Shown here: piece after piece, positions 7,877 to 25,994 of the stretch
How the letters are laid out: every line of letters begins with the position of its first letter
How positions within the stretch are numbered: the stretch's first letter is position 1
From: Candidatus Methanoperedens sp.
Lineage (GTDB): Archaea; Halobacteriota; Methanosarcinia; Methanosarcinales; Methanoperedenaceae
Direction: 5' to 3'
Length of the DNA stretch: 32,000 nucleotides
NCBI GenBank assembly: GCA_027460535.1
Contig: JAPZAR010000029.1
Coordinates: 33,735 to 65,734, forward strand
Notes under the pieces: model-generated
What the model saw: the letters and a program-made list of their open reading frames with translations, nothing else
What the model was told of the DNA's origin: nothing
Databases searched by the model: none
Made by a program: the position numbers and the translations under genes

Positions 7877-7899
7877 TCCTCCATAATTCCTTTACAAAC

Positions 7900-8685: not shown

Positions 8686-8772
8686 CGGGCGCGGAGGGAA
8701 TTGAACCCCCGACCTACAGCTTGCTCCTTAGAAATTAGGAGGCTGCCGCCATATCCTCTAGGCCACGCGCCC
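8686..8772 (-). tRNA. tRNA-Arg (anticodon CCU) with a ~14-nt intron at the canonical 37/38 position
   Basis: Hand fold of the reverse complement: acceptor GGGCGCG/CGCGCCC, D arm GCC..GGC, anticodon stem GCAGC/GCUGU, loop CUCCUAA, T arm GGGGG-UUCAAUU-CCCUC, discriminator G. The intron (~8722-8735) contains AGGAG complementary to the CUCCU anticodon region. Mature length is 73 nt. Confidence 0.85.
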
Positions 8773-8865
8773 TCTGGTTCGCTCCTAAATATCAGTGTGT
8801 TATCTTTAACTTATCGCCTTTATGAAAGAAAGGGTTAAGTATATTTGTGCTTATTCAAAGGCAAT

Positions 8866-8976
8866 CCCGCCTTAACTCAGTGGCTAGAGTGCGCGGCTGT
8901 AGTATGGTTCATGTGCATATGCACACAATACCGCGCAGGCACCGCGAAGTCCCCGGTTCGAGTCTGGGAGGCGGGA
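8866..8976 (+). tRNA. tRNA-Tyr (anticodon GUA) with a 38-nt intron at 37/38
   Basis: Acceptor CCCGCCU/AGGCGGG with a C1-G72 pair and A73 (archaeal/eukaryal tRNA-Tyr identity). D arm ACUC-AGUGGCUA-GAGU, anticodon stem CGCGG/CCGCG, loop CUGUAG..A, variable loop AAGUC, T arm CCCGG-UUCGAGU-CUGGG. Intron 8903-8940. A TATA-like AAGTATATTT lies ~24 nt upstream (8838-8846). Confidence 0.85.
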
Positions 8977-8987
8977 TTTTATTTTTT
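8977..8987 (+). terminator. oligo-T archaeal-type terminator after tRNA-Tyr
   Basis: TTTTATTTTTT immediately follows the discriminator base. Confidence 0.5.
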
Positions 8988-9044
8988 ATAATAATATTAA
9001 CAAATAAGTGAATTATTTAAAGCCAAAGCGCAAATAAGCCCATT

Positions 9045-9956
9045 ATGCTGCGAGTGACTTTTCTCGGGACAGGAGGCACCCTGCCTACGCCGAACCGCAA
9101 CCCTTCTGCCATACTTGTCAACAGGGAAGGAGATATGATGCTTTTTGACTGCGGCGAGGGCACGCAGCAGCAGATGATGCGAGGCAAAGTGGGCATGAAG
9201 ATAAATTCCATCTTCATTACTCATTTCCATGCCGACCATTTTCTCGGGATCCCGGGACTAATACAGACCATGTCTTTTAACGGAAGGACTGAACCGCTTG
9301 AAATATACGGGCCGGAGTGGACCAAGCAGATGGTACATCTCCTCATGGAGCTGGGTTACTACAAGCTCGGTTTTCCCATAAACGCGCATGAACTGGAAAA
9401 TGGGTCTACGATTGATAAAGGAGAATATTTTATAAAGGCTGTTGCCACAGATCATGGCATTCCCAGCCTTGGCTATGTGCTTGAGGAAAAAAAACGTATC
9501 GGCAGGTTTAACAAGGAAAAAGCTATCGAACTCGGGGTTCCGGTGGGGCATCTTTTTTCAAAGCTCCAGAATGGGGAGTCTGTCATGATAAATGGCAGAA
9601 AAATCTTGCCCTCCCAGGTATTAGGGAAAAGCCGTCCCGGCCGAAAACTGGTTTACAGCGGGGACACGCGGCCCTGTGGATCAATTGCCCGGGAAAGCTT
9701 GGGAGCGGACCTTCTTATCCACGACGGGACGCTTGCCGATGAGCTGAAGGAGTGGGCTCTTGAAACAAAACATTCGACATCGGGGGAAGCCGCAGCTCTT
9801 GCGAAAAAAGCAAAAGTAAAGCAATTGATATTGACACATGTCAGTTCCAGGTACTCGGAAAATGTAGAGATGCTATACCGTGATGCAAAGAGCGTATTTG
9901 AAAATGTCAAAATCGCAGAAGAATTCATGGAAATAGAAATACCTCTCAGTGAATAA
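9045..9956 (+). CDS. rnz: ribonuclease Z (tRNA 3' endonuclease)
   Basis: LRVTFLGTGGTLPTPNRNPSAILV, metallo-beta-lactamase HxHxDH motif (THFHADH), 303 aa. Confidence 0.9.
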   Translation: MLRVTFLGTGGTLPTPNRNPSAILVNREGDMMLFDCGEGTQQQMMRGKVGMKINSIFITHFHADHFLGIPGLIQTMSFNGRTEPLEIYGPEWTKQMVHLLMELGYYKLGFPINAHELENGSTIDKGEYFIKAVATDHGIPSLGYVLEEKKRIGRFNKEKAIELGVPVGHLFSKLQNGESVMINGRKILPSQVLGKSRPGRKLVYSGDTRPCGSIARESLGADLLIHDGTLADELKEWALETKHSTSGEAAALAKKAKVKQLILTHVSSRYSENVEMLYRDAKSVFENVKIAEEFMEIEIPLSE

Positions 9957-9992
9957 ATAAACATTAAATACACGCAGGTATATACCTCATAG

Positions 9993-10340
9993 GTGATGGT
10001 ATTGAACGCTTCTTTGTTGAAATTCAAACTGGACATTGAAAGAATAGGGCACATAATTGACCTGGATGAGTTCAAAATAAAAGAAGCCAGCGAACAAGGA
10101 AAGAGCACACTGATCTCTTCGAAATTCTTTAATAAAGGGGTTTACAGGGTGCGCAATACAAAGAACGGGCGCCTTGAGACTATTGCTGTGAATATTGATA
10201 AAATAGCGGCTGTCACATACGAAGGGCTCAAAAAAGAATTGGGGGAGGGCTGCGTTGACAAACTCCTCTGGAAGGATGTCCCTGAGGGCGAACCCATATT
10301 TTTCTATTCGCTTAAGCTTGAGAACGATTTTGTAAAATAA
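9993..10340 (+). CDS. hypothetical protein
   Basis: ORF with coding-like composition fills the rnz-deoA gap. I recognised no motif. The start could be the ATG at 9996. Confidence 0.45.
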   Translation: MMVLNASLLKFKLDIERIGHIIDLDEFKIKEASEQGKSTLISSKFFNKGVYRVRNTKNGRLETIAVNIDKIAAVTYEGLKKELGEGCVDKLLWKDVPEGEPIFFYSLKLENDFVK

Positions 10341-10343
10341 ACT

Positions 10344-11861
10344 CTAAAAGACCTTCGTTGCCTGGACTCTCTCTAAAAGCATGCCTTCCACAATTATGGG
10401 GAAGTCCGTCTCCGCACTCTTTAATGCATTTGTTAGTTTCCAGCTCTTGTCAGCGAAAATCGTTATCAGGGGTTCACCTTTCTTAACGATCTCACCTTTT
10501 TTCTTATGGATCCACACCCCCGACCCTCTGTCAATGGGGGCTCCCGCAATCCTCGCTATCTCCACGATTCTTTTATTGTCGAATTCAATAACATAACCTT
10601 CTGCCGGGGATGCAAGCTCAGCCCTATGTTCACCCGGTTTTATATCGGCATATGTTATTTTAGGATTTCCACCCTGTGCCTCTATGATTTCCCTTAATTT
10701 GCCCAGAGCCTTGCCTGAACGAAGTGTTTCCATCGCTATATCCTTACCGTGCCCTTTGGCCGCTGCTCCGCCCATTTCAAGCAAGATGCCGGCAAGTGCC
10801 GTACTCTTTTCAATAAGGCTGTTAGGCCCCTGCATTGTTTCCAGTACTTTGAGAGCCTCCCTGACCTCGATTGCCGGACCGACCGTCCTTCCGACCGGTG
10901 AGGCGCCGTAGGTCATGGCGCATTCCACACTCATCCCGAGCCTTTCTCCCAGTTCGATCAAGTCCCTTGCCAGTTTTTTTCCCTCCTGAATCGTGGGAAC
11001 TTTTGTCCCGCTGCCGATGGGTATATCGATGACGACACAGTCTGCGCCAACTGCCCCCTTTTTCGCCATTATGGACGCAAGAAGCTGGTTATGGGGGTCT
11101 ATCCCGAGTGGATATTCAGCATGTATCAGCTTGTCATCAGCCGGAGCTATATTTGTAGCGCCACCCCATGCGATCACGCCTCCTACCTTCTCTGTAATGG
11201 ATTTTATTTCCTCGGCCCCGAATTCTACTGGTGCAAGCACTTCCATAAGGTCAGCTGTGCCTGCCGCGCCGGTAATGGCCCGTGAGCTTGTCTTGGGTAT
11301 CAGGAGACCGTTCGCAGCTATTATGGGTACGACCAGCAGCGATATTTTATTCCCAGGTACACCCCCGATGCTGTGCTTGTCCACAATGGGATGGGTATCG
11401 AATTCGATCTTCTCGCCCGTATCGATCATTGCCCTTGTGAGCCATTCGACCTCATCCGAGCTCATTCCGTGGATGTATGAAGAGGTAACGAATGCAGACA
11501 ACTCTATTTCCGTAAGGTTATCCCTGACAATATCCTGGACGATCTGGTATATCTCTTCCTGCGTCAGCTTCTGGTGATCCATATATTTTTTAATGAAGCC
11601 GACGGAGCTGGGTCTTGAAGTGGGTATGATATCTACTGTAAGTGGGCATATCTTTCCAAGTTTCTCGCAACATTCCTGGTATACCCCTAGGTTACCTCTT
11701 TGAATCATATCGCCTGTTTCAACGATCGCAGTGATATAACTATGATCTTTTAATTGAACTCGGTCGCCGCCGCGAACCCCCAGTTCCTTAGCATCTTCGG
11801 TATTTAGGACAACCTTGAATTTTCCTGCCTTTATTTGAAGTGGTTGGACTTTTAATTCCAT
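10344..11861 (-). CDS. deoA: AMP phosphorylase (thymidine-phosphorylase family, archaeal long form)
   Basis: 505 aa. The N-terminal extension MELKVQPLQIKAGKFKVVLNTEDAKELGV is characteristic of archaeal AMP phosphorylase. It is followed by the glycosyl-transferase family 3 core (HSIGGVPGNK, TSSRAITGAAGTAD). Confidence 0.85.
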   Translation of the reverse strand: MELKVQPLQIKAGKFKVVLNTEDAKELGVRGGDRVQLKDHSYITAIVETGDMIQRGNLGVYQECCEKLGKICPLTVDIIPTSRPSSVGFIKKYMDHQKLTQEEIYQIVQDIVRDNLTEIELSAFVTSSYIHGMSSDEVEWLTRAMIDTGEKIEFDTHPIVDKHSIGGVPGNKISLLVVPIIAANGLLIPKTSSRAITGAAGTADLMEVLAPVEFGAEEIKSITEKVGGVIAWGGATNIAPADDKLIHAEYPLGIDPHNQLLASIMAKKGAVGADCVVIDIPIGSGTKVPTIQEGKKLARDLIELGERLGMSVECAMTYGASPVGRTVGPAIEVREALKVLETMQGPNSLIEKSTALAGILLEMGGAAAKGHGKDIAMETLRSGKALGKLREIIEAQGGNPKITYADIKPGEHRAELASPAEGYVIEFDNKRIVEIARIAGAPIDRGSGVWIHKKKGEIVKKGEPLITIFADKSWKLTNALKSAETDFPIIVEGMLLERVQATKVF

Positions 11862-13029: not shown

Positions 13030-13704
13030 TCAGATTTTTCCTAAGATATTTTTCAACTCATCTACACGCAACTGCCCTGGAGCTAGCGCATTCTCTACAT
13101 ACCCATATGTCATGACAGATCCATAGATGGGAGCTATAACACGCGAGTGCCTTCCTGTTTCACCCATGGCAATGGTGCACACCGGTCCTTTTGCTCGCAG
13201 GGTAGCCTCAAATAATCGCAGCACATCTTCAAGGGAATTCGGCATTACAGCGAGTTTAGCGATATCAGCCCCAGCCTCAAATGATTCATTGAATATTCCC
13301 ATCATAACATCTAACCTCGGTGTCTTCTGGAAATCATGTGTGGATATTATAACTGTTTTCCCTGCATCACTCGCTACTTTAACGACATCATCTCTCTTAT
13401 CCGAGCATAACTCAATGTCAACTGCATCTGAAAGAGGCAATAAAGAGACCAATGTCTTAATGCGCAATGACTCATCCCTGTGCCACTCTCCTCCCTCCTG
13501 CTTCATCCGGTTTGTAATAATTACAGGGAGGCCGATTCCTTTAACATCCTGAAGTGATTGACGGGCATCGCCATCCAGGAGATCGATCCTTAATTCCAGG
13601 ATATCTGCCCCAAGCTGTTTTGCTTTATTTGCATATTCGACAGGATTTTCTCCTAATGCCGCAACCACCGATCTTTTAAGTTCCAGACCTCCTAAGCGCA
13701 CCAT
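13030..13704 (-). CDS. aroD: 3-dehydroquinate dehydratase, type I
   Basis: ADILELRIDLL, VIITNRMKQEGG, IISTHDF and TIAMGETGRHSRV are typical type I DHQase blocks. 224 aa. Confidence 0.88.
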   Translation of the reverse strand: MVRLGGLELKRSVVAALGENPVEYANKAKQLGADILELRIDLLDGDARQSLQDVKGIGLPVIITNRMKQEGGEWHRDESLRIKTLVSLLPLSDAVDIELCSDKRDDVVKVASDAGKTVIISTHDFQKTPRLDVMMGIFNESFEAGADIAKLAVMPNSLEDVLRLFEATLRAKGPVCTIAMGETGRHSRVIAPIYGSVMTYGYVENALAPGQLRVDELKNILGKI

Positions 13705-14714: not shown

Positions 14715-14966
14715 ATGCGACGAAGCAGGATAGATATCATTATCGATGTTCTGGAGGTGGCAAGGATGGGCGTGAATAAAACGAGCGTTGTCTACAGGAC
14801 GAATCTGAATTTTAGGCTGGCGGATAAATATCTTGAGTTACTGCAGAGGCAAGGATTTGTAGAGAATAGAGTGGATAAATATATAACAACAGACAAAGGG
14901 AAGATCTTTTTGGAGAAAGCCAAAGAAATCAATCTACATTTAGAAGAGCCTGACCGAAACTGGTAA
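14715..14966 (+). CDS. small winged-helix DNA-binding protein (archaeal HTH_45-like)
   Basis: RRSRIDIIIDVLEVARMGVNKTSVVYRTNLNFRLADKYLELLQRQGFVE...ITTDKGKIFLEK fits the small archaeal wHTH family pattern. Confidence 0.6.
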   Translation: MRRSRIDIIIDVLEVARMGVNKTSVVYRTNLNFRLADKYLELLQRQGFVENRVDKYITTDKGKIFLEKAKEINLHLEEPDRNW

Positions 14967-15132
14967 TACCAATCTCCTCATTTTTTATTTCTACAAGCCC
15001 ATACTCATTCATGAAATCCAGGGTTGCAGCAACCTTTGATGGAATTTCTTTTTCAATTTCATTTATACGGAGTTTTTCTTTCTCACTGATTATTTCAAGG
15101 ATTCTATCTGCGGTTTCTCCGAATTTTGTCAT
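14929..15132 (-). CDS. small winged-helix-like protein (hypothetical)
   Basis: I place the start at the internal Met (MTKFGETADRILEIISEKEKLRINEIEKEI...YGLVEI) of track ORF 14929..15171. It is convergent with the previous gene and overlaps it by 38 nt. Confidence 0.4.
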   Translation of the reverse strand: MTKFGETADRILEIISEKEKLRINEIEKEIPSKVAATLDFMNEYGLVEIKNEEIGITSFGQALLNVD

Positions 15133-15391
15133 ACCTTTCTTGATAATGATGAAATAGTATATATAACTCAACTTAACAGAGTTCCTTAACGTGCTTTCTT
15201 AATATAATTTCTTAACTATATTTACTAATATTTTATATTACCTTCAAGCGTAGGAGTGTTTGCCCTTCATGGGCAGGATAAAACAGGTGATAAAATGAAT
15301 AACGAGAAACCGAATAGGACAGAAGAAGAAAGGGCAGCAGAGGAAATATTCCAGAAATATCCTCTAAACTTCGGTTAAGAGGCATCTTAAA

Positions 15392-16300
15392 ATGAGCTGG
15401 AGAAACAATATTGAACTATTAAGATTGTGCAACTCTCCAGCTTCTATAATTTCACCTTTCCCTATTTTTGCAATTTCCCTTTTTCTAATATCTCGCAGAG
15501 AGTTCAATATTCACGATTTACCCATTCTATTTGCCGGAATAGTTATCTCACTTTTTTCGAACTTTGGTTCTAACTTATGGAACCATTGCAATGATATAAA
15601 AGAGGATTTGGCACAAGGCAAGAAAACGATTTTAACACAGGATAGATCAATGCAAAAAACAGCACTGTTTATCGCTGTCATGCTCTACGCATTCTCTATA
15701 CTCTTTGTTTATTATTTATCAATCGAACTTAAAAAGCCAATTTACTTGTTTTTTTTAATTTGGGCTTTTGCAACCTGGTGGTATTCGGATAATCTAATTC
15801 TTAAAAAAATTATTGGTTTTAGACTAAAAGAGCATTATATAGGTGAGTTTATCACCTATGGCGTTGCATGGCCCACGTATACATTGAGCATCTGGCTTGT
15901 ATATTCTGATTTAAATGCCAAAGGAGTATTGACATCTGCGGCATTCTTTTTACTTAGCATATCAGCGCTACTGTTAAAGGATTTAAAAGACATAACAGGA
16001 GATAGGAAAGCTGGTTTAAAAACTTTTGGAGTAACATTCTCCCCTTCTCGACTAATACGATACTCCTCTTACATGATGTTGTTATTTTATTTTATCTTAC
16101 TGAATCCACTTTCTTTAAATCTTTTTGGTATCGGTATTTTGGTCATGATCTTTCCATTCGTTTATTTTTTTAAAAATACCTTTGCCCACATGTATAAAAA
16201 AAACTGGGTTTTAGAGCTAGAAGATATGAAAGCACTGAAATGCATAGGCAAATCTATCTATGCATCGGTGATATTTATAGGGCTGAGCGCTTTTCATTAA
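15392..16300 (+). CDS. UbiA-superfamily intramembrane prenyltransferase (divergent)
   Basis: About 8-9 TM helices. First Asp-rich motif NHCNDIKED (NxxxDxxxD) and second motif DLKDITGD (DxxDxxxD) followed by RKAGLKTF. It does not resemble DGGGP synthase around the first motif. Confidence 0.8.
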   Translation: MSWRNNIELLRLCNSPASIISPFPIFAISLFLISRREFNIHDLPILFAGIVISLFSNFGSNLWNHCNDIKEDLAQGKKTILTQDRSMQKTALFIAVMLYAFSILFVYYLSIELKKPIYLFFLIWAFATWWYSDNLILKKIIGFRLKEHYIGEFITYGVAWPTYTLSIWLVYSDLNAKGVLTSAAFFLLSISALLLKDLKDITGDRKAGLKTFGVTFSPSRLIRYSSYMMLLFYFILLNPLSLNLFGIGILVMIFPFVYFFKNTFAHMYKKNWVLELEDMKALKCIGKSIYASVIFIGLSAFH

Positions 16301-17670
16301 ATTTCCAAACAGGTATTTGTACCAGCATTTGTAAAAAAAATATTATCATTCGCTTCTGATAAATAATTTCTTAACTGGAATTCAGGTGGAATATACGCTG
16401 AAGGAGGGTAAGATAAAATTCCAAAATAATTTTTACCTAATAGTTTTTTCACTTTATCTTTATATTCAAAAGTTTTCTCTCCGAATGTGGTTGCAACTCC
16501 TACATCAATGCAGAAATAAATAAAACTACCATTATTATATTTCAAATTATTTAAACTTGAGATGAATGCATCAAATTTATCATTCACCATTTCATAAACT
16601 AGGGCAACCTTTTCTGAATAATCTGAAACATCCATAATTAGAGGGAACAGGTCGAATGGTAAAAAGTTGCCCATACCAATAACAAACGCTCCCTTTGTTT
16701 TTTTATTGAAAAAAAACAACCCATACGGTATGAAGATTTTATAGTCTCCTTTGTCAAGATTCCCTAAAATTTCTTTCTCTTTTTTATCAAATACATGTAT
16801 CAGATTCTTTACTGCTTCGGGGGAGGGTATGCCATCCAGCGATATTAAAATATTTTTTTCAAAGTTTGCTTTAAATTCCTTTATAACTTTAAAGTTATTA
16901 TTGATTATGCATCTTGTTTCATCAAGAGTTTTACCTTTATCAGGAAAGATCTCATCATATACAGCATTTATATTCTCTTTCTCGATTGTGAGTGCAGCAA
17001 TGCCTTCTTCTATATCCCTGAAGTTACAGAAAATGCTGGGAGAATTAAACCTCAGTTGTGTATGCAATACGTTAATTCCTATAATCGGCACTTTATAATC
17101 GGTACTTTGTGCAAAAATATCAAGTACAGTCGGAGGTGGGTAGATAAATTTCTCTTTATCGCAGTAATCTGCGAATTTTCCCGCATATTCTTTTTGTTTT
17201 TCCGGATTCGCTCTTTTGCATAATGTACTGTAATATAATCCTCTCGCACAAATTTGACTGACCTTAAACGCACTTGCCATATGTGCTAATGGAAAATGTA
17301 ATATAACAACCCCTTTCTTGCAATCTATTTTTTTGGCGAGTTTTTTCGCAGATTCTATTGCACCATTTTCATTCGCTCCTTGAACTCTTATCTTTGCGTC
17401 AGGGTCAGTGCATAGTACCAGCGCGGCACCATCCATTCTTAAATCATCTGGAAATATCATTCCATCCACAGAAGCGCCTATCTGTGGTATATCGCCATAC
17501 TCTTCATGGAATATATCCAGCATGGACTGATATTTGCCGCCATACTTTAACGTGGCATAGAATAAAGCAAGGTCAGGTTTAAAATCCAGATGCAAATGAG
17601 CTTGCTCTAAAATATCCAGTGCAGCCTGCTTATGGTCTTTTTTATTACTGAAAAGCGTAAGAGATCTCAT
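16297..17670 (-). CDS. stand-alone FIST-domain protein (FIST_N + FIST_C-like)
   Basis: The N-terminal KPDLALFYATLKYGG...IPQIGASVDGMIFPDD...DGAALVLC fits the FIST_N pattern. No recognisable output domain. Stop codons of this gene and the UbiA gene share TTAA at 16297-16300. Confidence 0.6.
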   Translation of the reverse strand: MRSLTLFSNKKDHKQAALDILEQAHLHLDFKPDLALFYATLKYGGKYQSMLDIFHEEYGDIPQIGASVDGMIFPDDLRMDGAALVLCTDPDAKIRVQGANENGAIESAKKLAKKIDCKKGVVILHFPLAHMASAFKVSQICARGLYYSTLCKRANPEKQKEYAGKFADYCDKEKFIYPPPTVLDIFAQSTDYKVPIIGINVLHTQLRFNSPSIFCNFRDIEEGIAALTIEKENINAVYDEIFPDKGKTLDETRCIINNNFKVIKEFKANFEKNILISLDGIPSPEAVKNLIHVFDKKEKEILGNLDKGDYKIFIPYGLFFFNKKTKGAFVIGMGNFLPFDLFPLIMDVSDYSEKVALVYEMVNDKFDAFISSLNNLKYNNGSFIYFCIDVGVATTFGEKTFEYKDKVKKLLGKNYFGILSYPPSAYIPPEFQLRNYLSEANDNIFFTNAGTNTCLEI

Positions 17671-17944
17671 TTCACCTTTTGTATTTTTGTCTCCGGGGCG
17701 TTTTTACTTTCCATTATATCCAGAATTTCAATTAGTTTGTTTGGGAATATATATTTTTCCGCTATATTATTAAGATGCAGTGTTCTTAATATTTTAACCT
17801 TCTCACCAGGTTTAAAGGGAGAATGCCTAGGTCAACTTGATAAACATTCTATGAGGATGCAAAGGCAGAACTATATCTATTTTGGAGATTAATTTTAATC
17901 CGATACAGGTATCCATCGATTATTAATCCGAGGGAGGAAAAATT

Positions 17945-19510
17945 ATGAGCTTGGAAAAAAGTCAGGTCAGAGAGGCTATTAGAAAAAGTCAGGCTTTTCT
18001 GCTTAAAGGCGTAGAGAACCATTTGATATTAAATGGGAGAAGACAGCAAGAATTCCTAATAAATCCATGCCCATTAGCCACAGCCCTTGCAATTCTAGCA
18101 TCCGAGAGAAATTGTGAACCAGTAAAAAACGCAATCACCTGGCTTCGGAAAATACAGAATAAGGATGGCGGATGGGGTTTTGCGGATAGCGTGCCCAGCG
18201 ATATTAATAGCACTGCTCTATGCATTCTGGCTCTGGAAGAGACTGAAAGACAGATAGAAAAAAGAGCCCGCATTTTCATGAAAGAAAATGGTGGTTTCTC
18301 AAAAACAGAATGGTTTGTTCAAGTGATTTCAAGTTTATTTGACAAATACTCCCCGGATGAGATTCGTACTCCAGGTGTTGGTGCCTCAAGATTGCCTCTT
18401 CCGGAACTGCGATTTACACCTTCATTTTATGCTAATCTGAATCCTACTGCGAAAAATATGGTTTTTAGCCTTACCGCGCTGGAAATGTTGGCTAAAAAGG
18501 AAAATGCTAACAAAACACTGGGATTTTTAGAAAGTGTTCAGGGACTGGATGGTTCTTGGGATCAAGAGGTTATACTTACTTCTTTCGCAACATTGGCGTT
18601 TCAAAAAGCTAAAATAAATCCCAGAATAAATCCGAATCATTGGTTTTCCGAGGTGCAATATTCAGATGGTGCTTGGCCAGCTTTCAACCAATTAGCTTGT
18701 TGGGATATAGGTTGGGCCAGTTCTATTCTTGCTGGAAAATTTTTGCGGGATGAAAGACTACAAAGAGCGAAAAAGTATCTTGAAGATGGAATGTATTTGG
18801 ACGGAAGTTTTGGGTTCACATTGCCACATGCAGGGCCGGATATTGATGACACTGCAGTGGCTTTAATAGGGCTTAAAAATCTCTGTTCAGAGAAAACTCT
18901 ACAGACATCTCGATATTTAAAATTTATGCAGAATGCAGATGGAAGCTGGAGCACATTCCCGGAGTTCTTTGGCAGTCCCCCGTATTGCATTTCAGGAAAA
19001 GTTGTTCATTTACCAAGTGTGGATGTAACGTGTCATGTTTTAAAAGCCTTATACGACGAACCATTAACAAATAAAGAACCTTTCATAGAGTCGGCTCTCG
19101 ACTGGTTAGTCTCAGCTCAGAACAAAGATGGCTCATGGGAATCGACATGGTTCAGGGGTAATATCTACGCGACTTCTGAGGCTATAACCACTTTGCATAA
19201 ATTTGGCATTGAGGGAGAAACTATATCCAGAGGTTTAGAATGGGTTGGTGGTCAACAGCGCTCTGATGGGAGTTTTGGCAATGGCACCGTACCAGAAACG
19301 TCATTAGCGTTAACAGCATTCATGGCATGCCTTTTTGAAAAAGTGGATGTTGATAAGGCAGTTCAATTCTTATTGGATGAACAAAACCCCGACGGATCTT
19401 TTTCAAGATCTTATACAGGAATCTATTTCGGTATTTATTATAATGACCCCATATATTTTACCTATTTGGGATTAAATGCGCTTGAACTATACAATAAAAT
19501 GGAAAAATAA
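17945..19510 (+). CDS. squalene-hopene-cyclase-family class II terpene cyclase (521 aa)
   Basis: Eight to nine [QM]xxDG[GS][WF] QW-type repeats (QNKDGGWGF, QGLDGSWDQ, QYSDGAWPA, MYLDGSFGF, QNADGSWST, QNKDGSWES, QRSDGSFGN, QNPDGSFSR). DIDDTA (aa 299-304, nt 18839-18856) matches the catalytic DxDDTA. Blocks are collinear with A. acidocaldarius SHC as I recall it (PDVDDTAVV / SEDVTAHVL / QKPDGSW). GAGGGAGG SD-like motif before the ATG. Confidence 0.8.
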   Translation: MSLEKSQVREAIRKSQAFLLKGVENHLILNGRRQQEFLINPCPLATALAILASERNCEPVKNAITWLRKIQNKDGGWGFADSVPSDINSTALCILALEETERQIEKRARIFMKENGGFSKTEWFVQVISSLFDKYSPDEIRTPGVGASRLPLPELRFTPSFYANLNPTAKNMVFSLTALEMLAKKENANKTLGFLESVQGLDGSWDQEVILTSFATLAFQKAKINPRINPNHWFSEVQYSDGAWPAFNQLACWDIGWASSILAGKFLRDERLQRAKKYLEDGMYLDGSFGFTLPHAGPDIDDTAVALIGLKNLCSEKTLQTSRYLKFMQNADGSWSTFPEFFGSPPYCISGKVVHLPSVDVTCHVLKALYDEPLTNKEPFIESALDWLVSAQNKDGSWESTWFRGNIYATSEAITTLHKFGIEGETISRGLEWVGGQQRSDGSFGNGTVPETSLALTAFMACLFEKVDVDKAVQFLLDEQNPDGSFSRSYTGIYFGIYYNDPIYFTYLGLNALELYNKMEK

Positions 19511-19575: not shown

Positions 19576-20001
19576 CTAAATGTCAAGTACGACCCTTGCG
19601 ATCCAGTTTTGTCCTTTCTTCCTGACCTCGTATAGATGGTAGGTGACTGCTTTTACGTCCGATCTCAAGGTATGCTTTTCCCGGTCGATGGTCTCGCCGG
19701 ATATTATTGCGTAAAGTTCGTATTCATCATTTTTTTTGATTGTCACATCAAATCTTCCAAAGAGAATCGATTCGGCGTCCTTAAGATAGACCAGCTCTGA
19801 GAGCCAGTCAAAAAGAAGCCCCTCAATAGATTCGTTTTTCAATTCGATCTTTCTGCTAACCGCTGGTTTTATGCTTTTCGTATCTGCCATGACCTCAGAG
19901 ATCGCGAATGCCGCATCCCTGAACAATTCTTCCAGATTCCTGCCTTCGGCCTCAAAGGCAACATCCGAAGTAGCGATGTCCTCAAGATATCGAAAAGGCA
20001 T
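19576..20001 (-). CDS. archease (RtcB tRNA-ligase cofactor)
   Basis: FRYLEDIATSDVAFEAEGRNLEELFRDAAFAISEVM ... VKAVTYH, 141 aa; canonical archease termini. Confidence 0.85.
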   Translation of the reverse strand: MPFRYLEDIATSDVAFEAEGRNLEELFRDAAFAISEVMADTKSIKPAVSRKIELKNESIEGLLFDWLSELVYLKDAESILFGRFDVTIKKNDEYELYAIISGETIDREKHTLRSDVKAVTYHLYEVRKKGQNWIARVVLDI

Positions 20002-20366: not shown

Positions 20367-21452
20367 ATGGTGAAGAAAAGTGAGATGAAGAAAGAAGAAG
20401 GTCAAGAAAAAAAAGATGTTTTCAAAGTATGGGCCGACAGCTATACCGCTGTTTCAAAAATGTGGGAGGAATCCTACATGAACCTGTACAAGCCCTGGAT
20501 AGAAACCACGGGTGAAATGTTCGAAAAAGCAGTTGAGCTATCAAAGGAAGCCACGCCTGAGAAGTACAAAGAATTCTATGATGAATGGATAAAGGCACAG
20601 CAGAAGACGTTTGGGAAAATCTATCCTATCCCGATGCAGAAATCCGACCGGGAGACGCTTGAGAAACTTCTTGTAAGCGCGGAGGAAGCGAACAACCTCT
20701 TCAAATCCTGGGTCGCCGAGATAGAGGAGAACACGCAGAGAACGCAAGATTTGCTGAAAGGTACACCCGACCCCGAAAAGTACAGGGATCATTTTAATAT
20801 GTGGATGAAATCCTATGAAAAAATATTCGATGAGTTCATTTCCATGCCGGCTATGGAAAGCACGAAGGAAATATTCGGGAATTATGGCGGCATACCTAAT
20901 ATGTACTTAAAGAATTTTGCAGAGATGTCAAAAATATGGAAGAATTCGTTCTCTGACTTGTACTTGCCCTGGGTTGACCCCATGTTCAGGCTCTCCGGGA
21001 AGACGGCTGAGCTCTCAAGGGGAAACGCAACTCCTGAAGACTACAAGGAATTCTACAATCTTTGGATGAAAACATACCAGGAAACATATGGCAAGATGTT
21101 CAATGTCCAATCCATGAAGCCGTCAAAGGAAATGCTTGAAAATTTCCTCGAGAGCACCAATATCTATCTCAACATGTATAAAACGTGGATAGCTGCCATG
21201 GAAAAGATGTCGGAAAAGGTCAAAGACCTGTCGGGACGCACGTCCGATCCTGAAGCTTATAAGGAATTTTACGACCTCTGGGTAACGACATATGAGAAAG
21301 CTTTCGAAGACTTCTTCGAGAACATGCCCACTATTGGCCCTATGAAGAAGATGATGGAACCTGTAAAGAGCGCGGCCAAGATATACGCCGACACATTTGC
21401 GAACATGTCAAATATGTGGATCGAGTCTTTTCCCAGCACAGCCCGGGCCTGA
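20367..21452 (+). CDS. phasin-like protein built from four PhaE-N-terminal-type repeat modules
   Basis: The motif [TD]PE.Y[KR][ED][FH][YF]..W recurs at aa 63, 135, 222 and 294 (TPEKYKEFYDEW, DPEKYRDHFNMW, TPEDYKEFYNLW, DPEAYKEFYDLW) in an A-B-A'-B' arrangement. The same module (SPEAYRDFYRLW) occurs in the adjacent phaE. GGAGG SD before the ATG. Confidence 0.65.
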   Translation: MVKKSEMKKEEGQEKKDVFKVWADSYTAVSKMWEESYMNLYKPWIETTGEMFEKAVELSKEATPEKYKEFYDEWIKAQQKTFGKIYPIPMQKSDRETLEKLLVSAEEANNLFKSWVAEIEENTQRTQDLLKGTPDPEKYRDHFNMWMKSYEKIFDEFISMPAMESTKEIFGNYGGIPNMYLKNFAEMSKIWKNSFSDLYLPWVDPMFRLSGKTAELSRGNATPEDYKEFYNLWMKTYQETYGKMFNVQSMKPSKEMLENFLESTNIYLNMYKTWIAAMEKMSEKVKDLSGRTSDPEAYKEFYDLWVTTYEKAFEDFFENMPTIGPMKKMMEPVKSAAKIYADTFANMSNMWIESFPSTARA

Positions 21453-21454
21453 GT

Positions 21455-22015
21455 ATGGAAAGAACCTGTTTTGAATCCACCCACGAGTTTTTTGAGATGT
21501 GGTTAAAGACCTATGAAGCAACCTATGGCAGGCTCATAGAAATGCCTCCCATGGGCCCGATGCGCGAGAAATCAGAAAAAGTGATGAAGAATTTTTCGCT
21601 TTCAGTCAACCTTTACACGGCATGGATGGAATCCCTGGCCGATTTCCAGAGTGTTTTCATTGAAGCCATGCGCAGGATGCGCGAAAAGATGGCAGTGGAG
21701 GGGGAGGTCAGCCCTGAAGCATATAGGGATTTTTATAGGTTATGGATTGAAACTTACAGCGAGACGTTCAAAGAATTCTTGAAGTCAGGCCATTTTTCCT
21801 CGGGCATGGGCAGGCTCATGTCATATTCTATCGATTTCCAGAAAAATAACAGGGAAATGCTTGAGGAGAATTACATGAAAACATTGGGCCTTCCCACAAG
21901 GACCGAGATCGATGAGATAAACAGGGAAGTCTATTTTCTCAAGAAAAAGGTAAAGGAGCTGGCAGGAGCGTCAAGGAACTCGCAGGGGATGGGAGGACTC
22001 CATGAACAGTCTTGA
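21455..22015 (+). CDS. phaE: PHA synthase subunit PhaE (class III)
   Basis: I place the start at the Met of MERTCFEST (codon 14 of track ORF 21416..22015). It has the PhaE repeat module and a C-terminal GLPTRTEIDEINREVYFLKKKVKEL coiled-coil typical of PhaE. It overlaps the phaC start. Confidence 0.8.
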   Translation: MERTCFESTHEFFEMWLKTYEATYGRLIEMPPMGPMREKSEKVMKNFSLSVNLYTAWMESLADFQSVFIEAMRRMREKMAVEGEVSPEAYRDFYRLWIETYSETFKEFLKSGHFSSGMGRLMSYSIDFQKNNREMLEENYMKTLGLPTRTEIDEINREVYFLKKKVKELAGASRNSQGMGGLHEQS

Positions 22016-23186
22016 TTTCATAGAGAGGCAGATAAAATTCGTAAGAGGGATGGAAATACTGCTGGAACCTCCCGAAATTACAGTTGGGACTACCCCTTCG
22101 GAGGTCGTCTATGCAGAAGACGACATGAAGCTTCTGCATTACATTCCAACATCAGAAAAATCGTATCCGATTCCGGTGTTGATAGTATATGCATTTGTTA
22201 ACAGGTATTACATCCTGGATCTCCAGCCCGATAAGAGCGTGATAAAAAAGCTGCTGAATGAGGGCCTCGATGTCTACATCATTGATTGGGGATACCCTTC
22301 GGGGGCAGACATGTACCTGACCCTTGATGATTACGTTAACGGCTATATAAATAATGCAGTGGACAAAGTCAGGGAAATATCGGGAACGGAAAAGATCACA
22401 CTGCTCGGGGTGTGCCAGGGGGGAACGCTTTCCGTGATGTACGCCTCACTTTATCCTGAAAAAGTGAAGAACCTTGTTGCCCTTGTGACACCGGTGAATT
22501 TCGATACGGATAAAGGACTTCTCCATATCTGGGCAAAAAGCCTGGATGTTGACAAGATGGTTGACTACTATGGGATAGTACCAGGGGATCTGCTGAATGT
22601 TGGATTCCTGCTCACGGATCCTTTCAGGCTTATGATAGACAAGTATGTGGGATTATTCGAGAGGATCGAAGGCGAGCCTGATAATGCGGGTTATCTCAGG
22701 AATGAGGAGACGGTCAAGACCTTCCTGCGGATGGAGAAATGGATATTTGACAGCCCAGACCAGGCAGGCGAAGCTTTTCGGCAGTTCATGAAGGACTGCT
22801 ACCAGAACAACCTTCTCATCAAGAATGAGATGAAGCTAGACGGGAAGAAGATCGACCTGAAAAAAATAACGATGCCCCTATTAAATGTTATGGCGGAGAC
22901 GGATCATCTTGTTCCCAACGCTGCGAGCATTCCGCTTAACGATGCGGTTGCGAGCGAAGATAAGGAGACACTCATTTTCCCGACGGGGCATATCGGTATC
23001 TTTGTTGGTTCCAAATCGCAGAAAGAGGTTTGTCCGAAGATTGCGGAGTGGCTGAAGCCGAGATCTTTACCGGAAGAGATGAAAGAGCGATCGGAAGAGC
23101 AAAGAGAGCAAGCTGGAGTGGAAAAACCCGGACAACCGGTAGTGCGTAAAAGAAGAGGTCGTAAGGCGAGGAGAAGCGTAAAATGA
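22002..23186 (+). CDS. phaC: PHA synthase catalytic subunit PhaC (class III) with a basic C-terminal tail
   Basis: Lipase-box-like GVCQGG with the catalytic Cys. Alpha/beta-hydrolase core with PLLNVMAETDHLVP and GHIGIFVG. About 355-aa core plus a ~40-aa Lys/Arg-rich tail (VVRKRRGRKARRSVK). Confidence 0.9.
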   Translation: MNSLDFIERQIKFVRGMEILLEPPEITVGTTPSEVVYAEDDMKLLHYIPTSEKSYPIPVLIVYAFVNRYYILDLQPDKSVIKKLLNEGLDVYIIDWGYPSGADMYLTLDDYVNGYINNAVDKVREISGTEKITLLGVCQGGTLSVMYASLYPEKVKNLVALVTPVNFDTDKGLLHIWAKSLDVDKMVDYYGIVPGDLLNVGFLLTDPFRLMIDKYVGLFERIEGEPDNAGYLRNEETVKTFLRMEKWIFDSPDQAGEAFRQFMKDCYQNNLLIKNEMKLDGKKIDLKKITMPLLNVMAETDHLVPNAASIPLNDAVASEDKETLIFPTGHIGIFVGSKSQKEVCPKIAEWLKPRSLPEEMKERSEEQREQAGVEKPGQPVVRKRRGRKARRSVK

Positions 23187-23923
23187 GACTCGATAACAAA
23201 GTTGCAATTATTACAGGTGGAGGGAGCGGTATTGGCAGGGAAACTGCAATGCTGTTCGCCGAGGAGGGTGCAAAGGTGGCAATAACTGGAAGGACGGATG
23301 AGAGAATAAAGAAAGTCTGCGAAGAGATAAGCGAAAAAGGTGGAAAATCAATCTATGTCCGGGGGGATGTTTCAATAAAGGAAGACATGGATGAAGTCGT
23401 CAATAAGACTATCAATGAATTTGGGCGGATTGATATCCTGATAAACAACGCAGGGATCAATCAGGATGCTTTAGTAACTAAAATGACCAGGGAACAGTGG
23501 AATGGTGTCATTAACATCGATCTTTCCGGCGCTTTCAATTGCATCCAGGCAGTGGTCGATGTAATGATCAACCAGGGTAGTGGTGTGATTATCAATGCGT
23601 CATCAATTTCAGGCATATATGGTAATATCGGACAGGTAAATTACGCTTCGGCAAAGGCTGGGCTAATAGGTTTGACCAAGACCCTTGCAAAGGAACTCGG
23701 TAAAAAAGGCATCCGTGTCAATGCGGTCGCTCCGGGATTCACAGTTACACCCATGACTTCGAAAGTACCTGAAAAAATTATGAATATAATGATAGAGAAG
23801 ACCCCTCTTCGCAGGCTGGCAGAGCCACGGGATATTGCCTACGCATACCTTTATCTCGCTTCGGATGAGGCGAGGTTCGTTAACGGGGCAGTGCTCTCGG
23901 TCGACGGGGGATTGACCATCTGA
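23183..23923 (+). CDS. short-chain dehydrogenase/reductase, FabG/PhaB-type (candidate acetoacetyl-CoA reductase)
   Basis: TGGGSGIGR cofactor motif, NNAG, catalytic S...YxxxK (YASAKAG). 246 aa. ATGA overlap with phaC. Confidence 0.8.
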   Translation: MRLDNKVAIITGGGSGIGRETAMLFAEEGAKVAITGRTDERIKKVCEEISEKGGKSIYVRGDVSIKEDMDEVVNKTINEFGRIDILINNAGINQDALVTKMTREQWNGVINIDLSGAFNCIQAVVDVMINQGSGVIINASSISGIYGNIGQVNYASAKAGLIGLTKTLAKELGKKGIRVNAVAPGFTVTPMTSKVPEKIMNIMIEKTPLRRLAEPRDIAYAYLYLASDEARFVNGAVLSVDGGLTI

Positions 23924-23948
23924 GATTTAAAACAAGTGGGAGAATTAA

Positions 23949-25127
23949 ATGAACAAAGCAGTGATTGTTTCGGCAACGAGGACCGCGATAGGGAAATTTG
24001 GCGGGAGTCTTAAGGATTTCACGCCCGGACAACTTGGTTCCGTGGTGCTGAAAGATGCGCTGAAAAGGGCGCAGGTTGAACCTGACGAGGTTGATGAAGT
24101 TATCATGGGAAATGTTCTTTCAGGGGGCCATGGCATGAATATTGCCAGGCAATCCTCGATATGGGCAGGGCTGCCGGAAAAGGTACCTTCCTGCTGCGTG
24201 AACAAAGTTTGCGGCTCTGGATTGAAATCGGTTATCTTTGGTGCCCAGGCAATCATGCTGGGCGATGAGGATATCATACTCACCGGAGGAACGGAATCCA
24301 TGTCGGCATCCATGTATGCCCTTAAAAAAGCACGCTGGGGGATCAAGATGGGCAATGATGAGACAATTGACACGATGATAAGTGACGGGCTCTGGGATAT
24401 TTTCAATAATGTCCACATGGGGATTACGGCAGAAAATGTGGCTGAGAAATATCACATCAGGCGGGAAGACCAGGACGAATTCTCAGCAAAAAGCCAGAAT
24501 AAATCAGAATCTGCCATAAAAGCCGGGAGGTTCAAGGATGAAATAGTTCCTGTAGAAGTCCCGCAGCCAAAAGGCGACCCTCTTCTTTTTGATACGGATG
24601 AGTTCCCGAGATTCGGAACAACAAAAGAAGTACTATCCAGGTTGAAACCGGCATTCAAAAAAGATGGCACAGTGACGGCAGGGAATGCGTCCGGGATCAA
24701 TGACGGGGCTGCATCGGTCCTTCTCATGTCGGAAGAAAAGGCCCGGGATAAGGGCCTGGAGCCGCTTGCAACCATCATTGGCTACGCGTTCTGCGCAATA
24801 CCTCCGGAAATAATGGGAATGGGACCGGTTTGCGCAACCAGGAAAGTCCTTGAGCGCGCGGATCTGAAACTGGATGATATTGATCTTATAGAAGTGAATG
24901 AAGCATTTGCAGCCCAGTCGGTTGCCGTCAGCAAAGAATTGGGATGGGATATGGACAGGGTAAATGTTAACGGGGGCGCCATAGCCCTCGGGCATCCAAT
25001 AGGTGCGAGCGGAGCCAGGATACTGGTCACATTGATCCATGAATTGATAAGAAGAGATAGCACTTACGGACTTGCCACACTCTGTATCGGGGGTGGGCAG
25101 GGTATTGCAGTAGTAATTGGGAGGTAG
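23949..25127 (+). CDS. phaA: acetyl-CoA acetyltransferase (bacterial-type thiolase II)
   Basis: VNKVCGSGLKS (active-site Cys), NASGINDGAA, NVNGGAIALGHPIGASGAR, CIGGGQG. 392 aa. Confidence 0.9.
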   Translation: MNKAVIVSATRTAIGKFGGSLKDFTPGQLGSVVLKDALKRAQVEPDEVDEVIMGNVLSGGHGMNIARQSSIWAGLPEKVPSCCVNKVCGSGLKSVIFGAQAIMLGDEDIILTGGTESMSASMYALKKARWGIKMGNDETIDTMISDGLWDIFNNVHMGITAENVAEKYHIRREDQDEFSAKSQNKSESAIKAGRFKDEIVPVEVPQPKGDPLLFDTDEFPRFGTTKEVLSRLKPAFKKDGTVTAGNASGINDGAASVLLMSEEKARDKGLEPLATIIGYAFCAIPPEIMGMGPVCATRKVLERADLKLDDIDLIEVNEAFAAQSVAVSKELGWDMDRVNVNGGAIALGHPIGASGARILVTLIHELIRRDSTYGLATLCIGGGQGIAVVIGR

Positions 25128-25133
25128 ATAGAA

Positions 25134-25994
25134 ATGGAAAACAATAGGAATGGAGCGCGTCTGAAAGGCAAAGTAGCCCTGGTAACCGGGGGCTCAAGAG
25201 GTATTGGCATGGCGATAGCAATGAGGATGGCGGAGGAAGGCGCGGATGTTGCCATAAATTACCAGAATACCAGAGAGCATGCAGAGAACGTATCTAAACT
25301 GGTAGACCACATAGGCACGATCGATGAAATCGGGAAATTATCGGTGATAATAGATCGTATGGATACCAAGGAGCACGCAAAGGAGGCATCGAAACTGGTG
25401 GAATCAATGGGCTGCCACTCATGTATCGTTCAGGCGAACGTGAGCGATATCGAGCAGGTGAACAAAATGAAAGACGAGGTGCTCAAAAAATTCGGCAAAA
25501 TAGATATTCTGGTCAATAACGCAGGAATCACCAGGGATAAATCGTTCGTCAAAATGACCCCGGAAATGTGGTCAGAAGTAATATCTGTGAACCTGAATGG
25601 GGCGTTCAACTGCACCAAAGCCGTAATAGACGATATGCTGGAACGAAAATACGGGCGCATAATCAATATCTCCTCTGTCATAGGGAGGATGGGCAATTTC
25701 GGACAGGCGAACTATGCAGCATCGAAAGCGGGAATGATCGGCCTTACACAGACGCTTGCAAAAGAATTCGCAGGTAAAGGCATAACGGTCAATGCGATAG
25801 CACCAGGATTCATTGAAACCGATATGGTGAGATCTGTCCCGAAAGAAGCGATGGAAAAAATCCTGGCAAAAATACCCCTCGGCAGACTGGGAAAGCCTGC
25901 AGAGGTCGCCGCAGCCGTGGCCTATCTTGTTTCCCCTGAAGGTGAATACATAACAGGTCAGGTTTTAGATATAAATGGGGGACTTTACATATAA
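25134..25994 (+). CDS. second FabG/PhaB-type SDR carrying a 32-aa in-frame tandem duplication
   Basis: TGGSRGIGMA, NNAG, YAASKAG. Extra segment NTREHAENVSKLVDHIG...DTKEHAKEASKLVESMG (nt 25266-25316 vs 25362-25412). Confidence 0.8.
   Translation: MENNRNGARLKGKVALVTGGSRGIGMAIAMRMAEEGADVAINYQNTREHAENVSKLVDHIGTIDEIGKLSVIIDRMDTKEHAKEASKLVESMGCHSCIVQANVSDIEQVNKMKDEVLKKFGKIDILVNNAGITRDKSFVKMTPEMWSEVISVNLNGAFNCTKAVIDDMLERKYGRIINISSVIGRMGNFGQANYAASKAGMIGLTQTLAKEFAGKGITVNAIAPGFIETDMVRSVPKEAMEKILAKIPLGRLGKPAEVAAAVAYLVSPEGEYITGQVLDINGGLYI

Follow-up and report, generated by a model that had tools for sequence, protein, structure and literature searches.

A predicted class II terpene cyclase in a variable slot within a conserved UbiA gene module of Candidatus Methanoperedens

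Gene content and origin of the locus

The DNA analysed here is a stretch of 32,000 nucleotides from Candidatus Methanoperedens sp. (contig JAPZAR010000029.1 of assembly GCA_027460535.1), referred to below as the window. It carries a gene for a predicted class II terpene cyclase of the squalene-hopene cyclase (SHC) superfamily, which lies next to the genes of a UbiA-superfamily intramembrane prenyl-diphosphate enzyme (UbiA1) and of an AF0772-like protein (Table 1). An earlier inspection of the letters alone, here called the sequence-only reading, had taken the three genes for one horizontally acquired islet. All three open reading frames are present as it had delimited them, and its hand counts of G+C proved exact (22/60 in the lines starting at 15421 and 18001, 34/60 in the line at 24001). 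Our analysis favours a different account, in which a conserved archaeal locus contains a variable slot and a cyclase that is probably competent occupies it.

The tract 15295-19510 has a GC content of 0.364 vs 0.436 for the window as a whole. The G+C content at third codon positions (GC3) is 0.29-0.34 in the UbiA1, AF0772-like and cyclase genes, compared with 0.50-0.59 in most of the flanking genes sampled and 0.40 in aroD. The tract described earlier as compositionally distinct is indeed low in GC, but it begins further to the left than 15295, at ~13.7 kb, and further low-GC patches are found in the window at 5.5-7 kb and 11.5-13 kb. An HNH_2 endonuclease gene (310 aa, GC 0.37, 5952-6884 on the minus strand), located inside the 5.5-7 kb patch, may be a mobile or defence element.

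Regarding the host, the cyclase and UbiA1 are 100% identical to proteins annotated as Candidatus Methanoperedens sp. (ANME-2d, a lineage of anaerobic methanotrophic archaea). Both proteins occur on contigs, the longest of 73.7 kb, that come from three sources, with the identical cyclase on three contigs, and the gene order aroD, HTH_45, UbiA1, AF0772-like, cyclase is repeated in at least five independent assemblies with 70-89% protein identity. Since the same order recurs in assemblies of independent provenance (NCBI, JGI, Logan), a chimera or mis-binning is very unlikely. The earlier view that this is an archaeal genome is right, and aroD and archease lie on the two flanks as described there.

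The predicted class II cyclase

The product of 17945-19510 is matched by the Pfam models SQHop_cyclase_C (E = 2.6e-33) and SQHop_cyclase_N (E = 4.9e-20), in agreement with its first assignment, and additionally by the toroid models TED_complement and Prenyltrans. It remains below every NCBIfam equivalog cut-off, with hopene_cyclase (TIGR01507) giving 118.7 bits vs 431.1. Its segment PDIDDTAVAL aligns with the catalytic PDVDDTAV (D374-D377) of the Alicyclobacillus acidocaldarius SHC, and the DxDD motif falls on the catalytic position. In an alignment of 34 homologs no variation was seen at D299, D301, D302 and T303, nor at W253, D360, H364 and W402, the equivalents of SHC W312, D447, H451 and W489. 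Y408 and F338, which correspond to SHC Y495 and Y420, are conserved at 90% or more, and the only conserved basic positions of the family are R107, K170, K419 and R429. Judged by these alignments, the acid machinery is predicted to be of the SHC type, comprising a general acid with its hydrogen-bond partners and aromatic cavity residues.

A confident AlphaFold2 (AF2) model with a beta-gamma fold, based on the 34-homolog alignment (pLDDT 84.8, pTM 0.87), was compared with the PDB by Foldseek, and the top 30 matches were all class II cyclases, the best among them being SsDMS, SHC, oxidosqualene cyclase (OSC), Rv3377c, PtmT2, Tpn2 and MstE. The PDB profile scores were 112 bits for SHC, ~72 for SsDMS, 63 for a monodomain cyclase, 55 for OSC, 50 for PtmT2 and 44 for Rv3377c; it is from these scores, and not from the tree described below, that the likeness to diterpene cyclases and to drimenyl diphosphate synthase (DMS) is taken. 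At 521 aa the protein has the size of the bacterial didomain sesqui- and diterpene cyclases and not that of SHC. An SHC proper was rejected on the grounds of the TIGR01507 score, of the length (521 aa and not ~630) and of the separate clade that the SHCs form with 100% support. With regard to a class II diterpene cyclase acting on geranylgeranyl diphosphate (GGPP), the size fits, while the profiles of PtmT2 and Rv3377c reach less than half the score of SHC. A GGAGG Shine-Dalgarno-like site lies 8 nt ahead of the cyclase ATG, and no signal peptide is evident in the protein. Taken together, motifs and model indicate that the gene product is very probably an active enzyme belonging to an uncharacterised subfamily of class II cyclases.

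Distribution and phylogeny of the cyclase

Orthologs with 70-93% identity were found in at least eight Methanoperedens lineages (~8 clusters at 70-75% in a search of 5.8 billion proteins). Beyond this genus the identity drops to 30-35%, the nearest relatives being ~530-aa proteins of Desulfosporosinus, Desulfitobacterium and related genera. When one genome was scanned for each GTDB species, Methanoperedens LC1 and M. nitroreducens Mnv1 were the only archaeal carriers of the family. The other carriers were ~45 Bacillota, one Deferrimicrobium and Chloroflexota at 25-27% identity, with ordinary SHCs further out.

A neighbour-joining tree of 36 sequences (Kimura distance, 200 bootstraps) recovered the Methanoperedens cyclases as monophyletic (100%), sister to and not nested within a Bacillota clade (96%) made up of orphan cyclases of Desulfitobacteriaceae. 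The grouping of Methanoperedens, Bacillota and P0066 received 72%, the Chloroflexota clade 96% and the SHC clade 100%. The phylogeny called for at the outset thus yields an uncharacterised clade that is sister to Bacillota and apart from the SHCs. An inter-domain transfer of the gene is plausible on this topology. Any acquisition is old, because the Methanoperedens cyclases have diverged from one another to the same degree as the neighbouring genes, UbiA1 included, which are vertically inherited. The cyclase is therefore an old resident gene, carried by only part of Ca. Methanoperedens.

UbiA1 and its upstream region

UbiA1 is recognised by the Pfam UbiA model (E = 1.7e-18, 67.3 bits vs a cut-off of 34.2). 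Both of its Asp-rich motifs are intact, as had been read from the sequence, namely NHCNDIKED at residues 64-72 and DLKDITGD at residues 197-204. N64, D68, D72, D197, D200 and D204 are invariant among 36 family members, and the family motifs read N64-H-x-N-D68-x3-D72 and K-D197-x-K-D200-x3-D204. The protein falls short of all NCBIfam equivalog cut-offs (MenA, UbiA, MqnP, DGGGPS, ChlG, CyoE), its best matches being PRK12884 (37.5 bits, cut-off 269) and MenA (26 bits, cut-off 346). Its annotation as MenA or MqnP in some sources can be ruled out from scores so far under the cut-offs. Only 66 relatives at E < 1e-3, including one or more from Methanonatronarchaeum, were retrieved among 1.84 billion representatives, and no PDB relative was found at E <= 0.01. 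By these searches UbiA1 belongs to a small, divergent, archaea-only family. Within Methanoperedens, however, it is common, with more than 120 clusters at 64-76% identity vs ~8 for the cyclase.

A 27-codon open reading frame, preceded by an AGGTGA Shine-Dalgarno sequence as reported earlier, lies just upstream of UbiA1. It is kept in six other Methanoperedens loci, with or without the cyclase, each time with a Shine-Dalgarno site, an EEE(K/R)xAEExF core and a stop ~10-14 nt ahead of the UbiA1 start, and could encode a leader peptide or a small subunit. In the promoter region further upstream, tandem TTTCTTAA / TTCTTAA boxes (15172-15230) are likewise kept across loci. Over the whole window the enrichment of TTTCTTAA is not significant (6 occurrences vs 2.6 expected; 5 of 100 shuffles reach 6). 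The boxes may be an operator site, either of the adjacent Sso10a/HTH_45 protein or of the 67-aa protein encoded beside it.

A conserved module with a variable slot

The AF0772-like protein had been described as a stand-alone FIST protein. The gene does lie on the opposite strand, but the label 'FIST protein' is only borderline, because FIST N is barely above the cut-off (23.6 bits vs 23.2) and FIST_C is absent; in precomputed Pfam matches the homologs carry PF27411 AF0772_C together with a weak FIST. The gene is normally the last of a minus-strand set composed of KaiC-like, AF0774 and AF0772 genes. With UbiA1 it is convergent, the two overlapping by 4 bp. The three genes are not transcribed as one unit: UbiA1 and the AF0772-like gene converge, the latter and the cyclase gene diverge, and a separate GGAGG site precedes the cyclase.

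Comparison of Methanoperedens loci revealed that the place held by the cyclase is a variable one (Table 1). On a 240-kb contig UbiA1 and the AF0772-like gene are followed by AF0774 and a KaiC-like ATPase, and the slot between AF0772 and AF0774 is empty; in several independent assemblies the cyclase fills it, and in M. nitroreducens Mnv1 it is taken by a flavoprotein of the geranylgeranyl reductase (GGR) family. The same neighbourhood, cyclase-free, was found on a distant archaeal contig (L096). From these gene orders, UbiA1, AF0772-like, AF0774 and the KaiC-like ATPase (a KaiC-domain protein; KaiC_arch_3, 114 bits) form a four-gene neighbourhood conserved across distant archaea, with over 100 Methanoperedens lineages carrying the module. 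The cyclase gene would then sit in the slot of the arrangement UbiA1, AF0772-like, slot, AF0774, KaiC-like ATPase, in which the AF0772-like, AF0774 and KaiC-like genes are on the minus strand. AF0774 and KaiC genes were sought across the whole window and none was found; here archease and a polyhydroxyalkanoate (PHA) gene cluster have taken the place of the module's right half, with archease marking the rearrangement breakpoint. A known defence system was considered for the AF0772/AF0774/KaiC module and set aside, as PADLOC gave only two sub-threshold matches, both on the KaiC-like ATPase. Literature searches on KaiC-like proteins in combination with FIST gave nothing relevant.

UbiA1 and AF0772 have a GC3 of 0.33-0.36 in genomes with and without the cyclase, while AF0774 and KaiC are compositionally normal. 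Recent horizontal gene transfer as the cause of the low GC was rejected, given that the low GC3 of UbiA1 and AF0772 is kept in all genomes checked. The compositional islet is therefore real, but, because this low GC3 persists where the cyclase is missing, it is no evidence that the three genes arrived jointly. Taking the trio for one horizontally acquired unit does not hold; UbiA1 and the 'FIST' gene belong to the conserved module and not to a terpene islet. This corrects the annotation logic of the locus, the neighbouring UbiA and 'FIST' genes being attributed to a separate UbiA/AF0772/AF0774/KaiC-like module.

Cyclase and UbiA genes in other genomes

In Mnv1 the cyclase ortholog (72% identity) is encoded on a contig different from that of UbiA1, in a tight cluster that is same-strand except for PadR (L012, Table 1). 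Upstream of it are an IdsA-like synthase and a second UbiA enzyme (UbiA2), and around it lie three radical SAM (rSAM)/SPASM proteins, of which the two after the cyclase are AhbD/NirJ-like. Every gene of the cluster has a low GC3 (0.25-0.34). The core, consisting of PadR, UbiA2, rSAM, cyclase, two rSAM and the ABC genes, is also present on L092 and L095. The latter, an 8.6-kb contig labelled as a Ruminiclostridium sp. metagenome-assembled genome (GCA_012027035.1), carries the UbiA2-rSAM-cyclase cluster at 86-95% identity to Mnv1 and is probably mis-binned. UbiA2 resembles digeranylgeranylglyceryl phosphate synthase (DGGGPS) and ChlG (PRK12884 159, DGGGPS 124, ChlG 100 bits), and shares only 27% local identity with UbiA1.

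The association extends to more distant homologs. All nine Chloroflexota loci (9/9) have an isoprenyl diphosphate synthase (IDS) upstream and a UbiA2-like gene directly downstream of the cyclase. In one of them (L059) the genes further downstream, such as an LpxL-like acyltransferase, hint at a lipid product. An archaeal-looking contig with a TYW2 neighbour (L093) encodes two UbiA proteins beside a 513-aa homolog (27% identity, E = 1e-28) that has a DLDD motif and no precomputed Pfam match. The (D/E)xDD motif is kept in all Chloroflexota and L093 homologs. Inspection of two genomes and a tblastn search of the partner genes against all 96 loci showed no UbiA near the ~44 Bacillota homolog loci, and an IDS in five of them.

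Thus, the co-occurrence of UbiA and cyclase in other genomes, for which the sequence-only reading had asked to look, does exist, but the partner is a different, DGGGPS-like UbiA. The pairing it had proposed is found in operonic form with UbiA2-type enzymes (L012, L092, L095, nine Chloroflexota loci, L093) and not with the UbiA1 of the window. From gene order, an operonic link between cyclase and UbiA appears to hold at the level of the family only. Both the Methanoperedens/Bacillota cyclase clade and the rSAM-rich cluster, a candidate for a biosynthetic gene cluster, appear to be undescribed.

Table 1. Features of the window and of the loci compared with it.
Feature	Locus	Position	Strand	Description
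UbiA1 promoter region	window	15172-15294		tandem TTTCTTAA boxes at 15195, 15208; kept across loci (alignment, pattern scan)
27-codon upstream ORF	window	15295-15378	+	MNNEKPNRTEEERAAEEIFQKYPLNFG; AGGTGA Shine-Dalgarno at 15285; ends 13 nt ahead of UbiA1 ATG
UbiA1	window	15392-16300	+	302 aa; UbiA-superfamily intramembrane prenyl-diphosphate enzyme; Pfam UbiA
AF0772-like protein	window	16297-17670	-	457 aa; weak FIST-N-like N-terminus
Divergent intergenic region, AF0772-like/cyclase	window	17671-17944		274 bp, GC 0.33; left edge of variable slot
Predicted class II terpene cyclase	window	17945-19510	+	521 aa; SHC superfamily, beta-gamma didomain; Pfam SQHop_cyclase_C/N
DxDD general-acid motif codons	window	18839-18850	+	D299-I300-D301-D302, aligned with SHC D374-V-D376-D377
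aroD (type I 3-dehydroquinase)	window	13030-13704	-	conserved left flank; Pfam E = 5.5e-53; syntenic in L002, L008, L009
HTH_45 / Sso10a-family winged-helix protein	window	14715-14966	+	left neighbour of UbiA1; Pfam HTH_45 E = 1.2e-21; NCBIfam Sso10a_fam 85 bits (cut-off 60)
Conserved 67-aa protein	window	14929-15132	-	between HTH_45 gene and UbiA1; gene at equivalent place in L002, L008, L009, L010, L091
Archease	window	19576-20001	-	right boundary of locus; Pfam E = 1.1e-41
Module with empty slot	L008 (240-kb contig)	8001-11662		UbiA1(+), AF0772-like(-), AF0774(-), KaiC-like ATPase(-), exonuclease VII; slot 155 bp
Cyclase in slot	L009, L001/L011, L002, L091			independent assemblies; slot empty in L008
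GGR-family flavoprotein in slot	L010 (M. nitroreducens Mnv1)	9973-11169	-	TIGR02032, 89 bits
Module, no cyclase	L096 (distant archaeal contig)	2637-6166		UbiA1 homolog 36% identical; convergent overlapping UbiA/AF0772, then AF0774, KaiC-like
UbiA2-rSAM-cyclase cluster	L012 (Mnv1, NZ_FZMP01000010.1)	1188-11810		IdsA-like synthase, PadR (opposite strand), UbiA2, rSAM/SPASM, cyclase, 2 rSAM/SPASM, ABC ATPase, ABC-2 permease, 362-aa protein
IDS - (UPF0047) - cyclase - UbiA	L057-L062, L064, L066, L070			Chloroflexota/Ktedonobacterales; conserved order
Example of the above	L059	4110-11548		IDS, UPF0047, cyclase, UbiA, ApbA-like reductase, DegV, LpxL-like acyltransferase; checked by Pfam
UbiA and cyclase homolog	L093 (JGI 3300029959)	6789-11194		archaeal-looking contig; UbiA, UbiA, 513-aa cyclase homolog, 349-aa protein

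Among the neighbouring genes, the HTH_45 gene beside UbiA1 is syntenic in L002, L008, L009, L010 and L091. The 67-aa protein has no family match in Pfam or NCBIfam. To the right of archease, the PHA gene cluster (20367-25994) comprises two PhaE-like open reading frames, the first of 361 aa and repeat-rich, PhaC, a short-chain dehydrogenase/reductase (SDR), a thiolase and a second SDR. Elsewhere in the window, tandem CrcB fluoride-channel genes are located at 7900-8600 on the minus strand, and an Fe-ADH_2 protein resembling glycerol-1-phosphate dehydrogenase, an enzyme of archaeal lipid backbone synthesis, is encoded at 28894-29994 on the plus strand.

Proposed function and alternative explanations

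Overall, these observations are best explained, with a probability that we put at roughly 0.6, by a catalytically competent cyclase residing in a variable slot of a conserved locus and supplying a cyclised terpenyl group that would be joined to an acceptor. H364 and Y408 would polarise D301 of the DIDD motif, which would protonate a polyprenyl chain at its terminal double bond, and the ensuing carbocation cascade would lead to a bi- or polycyclic product. Judging by the size of the enzyme, a GGPP-derived chain of C15-C25 is most likely. The recurrent partner of the family would be a DGGGPS-like UbiA, often together with an IDS; in view of this association, the product is most likely a cyclised terpenyl group on an acceptor, that is, a lipid or a meroterpenoid. 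Two orders of reaction can be envisaged. The cyclase may produce a cyclic prenyl diphosphate, still allylic, whose cyclic prenyl group is then transferred by the UbiA enzyme. Alternatively, the UbiA enzyme may first prenylate the acceptor and the cyclase then cyclise the attached chain, as is the case with MstE.

Several points weigh against this interpretation. The chain-length estimate is based only on protein size and on a structural likeness that extends to C15 and C30 enzymes alike, and the neighbour-joining tree of 36 sequences has no characterised diterpene cyclases among them. UbiA2 is rare, with only three close clusters found, and genomes with the arrangement of this window thus have no UbiA2. 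The lack of a UbiA near the Bacillota homologs means that a UbiA partner is not obligatory. Conversely, most Methanoperedens have UbiA1 without the cyclase, and in the window the two are not transcribed together.

Another explanation is a stand-alone cyclase, which has UbiA1 for a neighbour by chance and which, as must be so for its orphan Bacillota relatives, works alone on an isoprenoid that is common in the cell, be it GGPP, squalene, a polyprenol or an archaeol precursor that is unsaturated. We regard this as the foremost alternative, although a clearly less probable one. It is consistent with the UbiA-free loci of the nearest non-archaeal relatives (Desulfosporosinus, Desulfitobacterium and related genera), with the SHC-like acid machinery, and with a cyclase gene that has its own Shine-Dalgarno site and its own intergenic region. 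It does not account for orthologs of 72-73% identity inside the tight UbiA2-rSAM-cyclase operon, nor for the distant homologs that are operonic with IDS and UbiA.

The original proposal, according to which UbiA1, the FIST protein and the cyclase are one horizontally acquired functional islet, with UbiA1 and the cyclase acting consecutively on a GGPP-derived chain, is rather unlikely. The three genes are adjacent and share a low GC3, their arrangement is stable in the assemblies mentioned above, a GGR-family isoprenoid-tailoring gene takes the same slot in Mnv1, and the cyclase family is repeatedly tied to UbiA enzymes elsewhere. However, UbiA1 and AF0772 reside, with an equally low GC3, in genomes that have no cyclase (L008) and in the distant archaeon of L096, and UbiA1 clusters far outnumber those of the cyclase. 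Moreover, the gene orientations rule out an operon, the cyclase and UbiA1 of Mnv1 are on different contigs, and the conserved partners of AF0772 are AF0774 and the KaiC-like ATPase.

It is highly improbable that the protein is a non-catalytic alpha/alpha-toroid with a binding or structural role that merely resembles cyclases: the matches to generic toroid models and the scores below the cyclase equivalog cut-offs would suit such a protein, but DxDD and its hydrogen-bond partners are (nearly) invariant across Methanoperedens and Bacillota, (D/E)xDD is retained in Chloroflexota, a signal peptide is not evident, and active cyclases account for all of the top structural matches. Finally, the fusion of a bacterial fragment to an archaeal contig, to which the low GC and the Bacillota relatives might point, can practically be dismissed in view of the identical protein on contigs from different sources, the synteny with archaeal flanks in three sets of assemblies, the low identity to the Bacillota proteins and the sister position of the two clades.

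Within the favoured interpretation of a competent cyclase with a UbiA-joined product, the identity of the transferase deserves separate consideration. UbiA1 is the sole candidate in cis for the cyclase in the window, and the finding of two different isoprenoid-tailoring genes, the cyclase and the GGR-family gene, in one slot beside it is suggestive of a link. Nevertheless, a pairing of UbiA1 and cyclase in this window is doubtful. More tentative still is the specific scenario that Methanoperedens makes a novel cyclic terpenoid, in which a chain derived from GGPP or geranylfarnesyl diphosphate (GFPP) would be cyclised and UbiA-joined to a glycerol-lipid, quinone-like or tetrapyrrole acceptor. 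The transferase would be UbiA1 here; in the Mnv1 lineage it would be UbiA2, accompanied by three rSAM tailoring enzymes and an ABC exporter.

If the cyclase is active, its product would be a new cyclic isoprenoid of ANME-2d archaea, of relevance to membrane biology and lipid biomarkers. Should the novel terpenoid exist, it would represent a new class among the membrane or exported lipids of archaea, and it might serve as a biomarker of anaerobic methane oxidation that depends on nitrate or metals. In that case the family in anaerobic Bacillota and Chloroflexota might also be, speculatively and from general geochemical knowledge, a candidate source of orphan sedimentary cyclic terpanes derived from regular polyprenyl chains. 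The locus brings to light a class II clade that is uncharacterised, in a methanotroph of environmental importance, and comparative context supplies candidate partner genes.

Comparison with known systems

Terpene cyclisation was regarded as absent from Archaea until preprints of 2024-26 reported synthases of class I and, in Asgard archaea, diterpene cyclases of class II. Archaeal class I terpene synthases have been described (Samusevich et al.), halimadienyl diphosphate synthases of Asgard archaea have been shown to be active on GGPP, in a study that also reports 64 putative archaeal diterpenoid cyclases (McShea et al., bioRxiv 10.1101/2025.02.07.637177), and archaeal MstE-like homologs have been noted (PMC12324236). 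The notion that class II cyclases are bacterial and eukaryotic hallmarks, from which the sequence-only reading had started, is outdated in the light of the last two sources. The supplementary text of McShea et al. does not mention Methanoperedens, and our literature searches found nothing linking Methanoperedens with squalene-hopene cyclase or terpene, and only plant diterpene papers for UbiA-type enzymes with class II cyclases. The Asgard enzymes fall in a diterpenoid-cyclase clade near Rv3377c and plant copalyl diphosphate (CPP) synthases, whereas SHC and DMS score higher than Rv3377c against the Methanoperedens family.

Among solved structures, the best sequence match is the SHC of A. acidocaldarius (PDB 1gsz/2sqc; profile E = 1.7e-31). 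The Methanoperedens cyclase shares with it the DxDDTA acid, the equivalents of D447/H451, W312, W489 and Y495, multiple QW-like Q-x-x-DG-(S/G)-W repeats and a query-normalised TM-score of 0.71. It is shorter than the SHC of 631 aa, by ~78 residues before DxDD and by ~32 after it, and the identity is only ~20%. The best structural match is the class II sesquiterpene cyclase SsDMS, a drimenyl diphosphate synthase of Streptomyces showdoensis (PDB 7xq4/7xr7; Foldseek E = 1.9e-16, target-normalised TM-score 0.70-0.73). This enzyme has the same beta-gamma didomain size (514 aa), but the identity is 18% and SsDMS binds FPP-Mg2+ (FPP, farnesyl diphosphate).

PtmT2, an ent-CPP synthase (PDB 5bp8), and Rv3377c (PDB 6vpt) have the same didomain class II fold. 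PtmT2 acts together with PtmT1, a UbiA-type synthase that uses the still-allylic cyclic diphosphate, and Rv3378c is the downstream partner of Rv3377c. In these systems a class II cyclase is combined with an IDS and with a second enzyme that ionises a prenyl diphosphate, and the IDS-cyclase-UbiA and UbiA2-rSAM-cyclase clusters follow a similar logic. In contrast, their sequence likeness to the Methanoperedens cyclase is below that of SHC, and the UbiA1 of the window is not operonic with the cyclase.

A prenylate-first, cyclise-second logic is offered by the merosterol cyclase MstE (PDB 6sbb), which works with a UbiA-type aromatic prenyltransferase and is a homolog at 26 bits. MstE, 367 aa long, is a beta-only monodomain protein whose acid motif is DxD (PMC12324236), as opposed to the didomain architecture with DxDD of the Methanoperedens cyclase. 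As for the transferase, the second motif of UbiA1, KDxKDxxGDxxAGxxT, and its weak best NCBIfam matches fall in the DGGGPS/ChlG branch, from which UbiA1 differs in reaching no equivalog cut-off and in the family-specific first motif N-H-x-N-D-x3-D.

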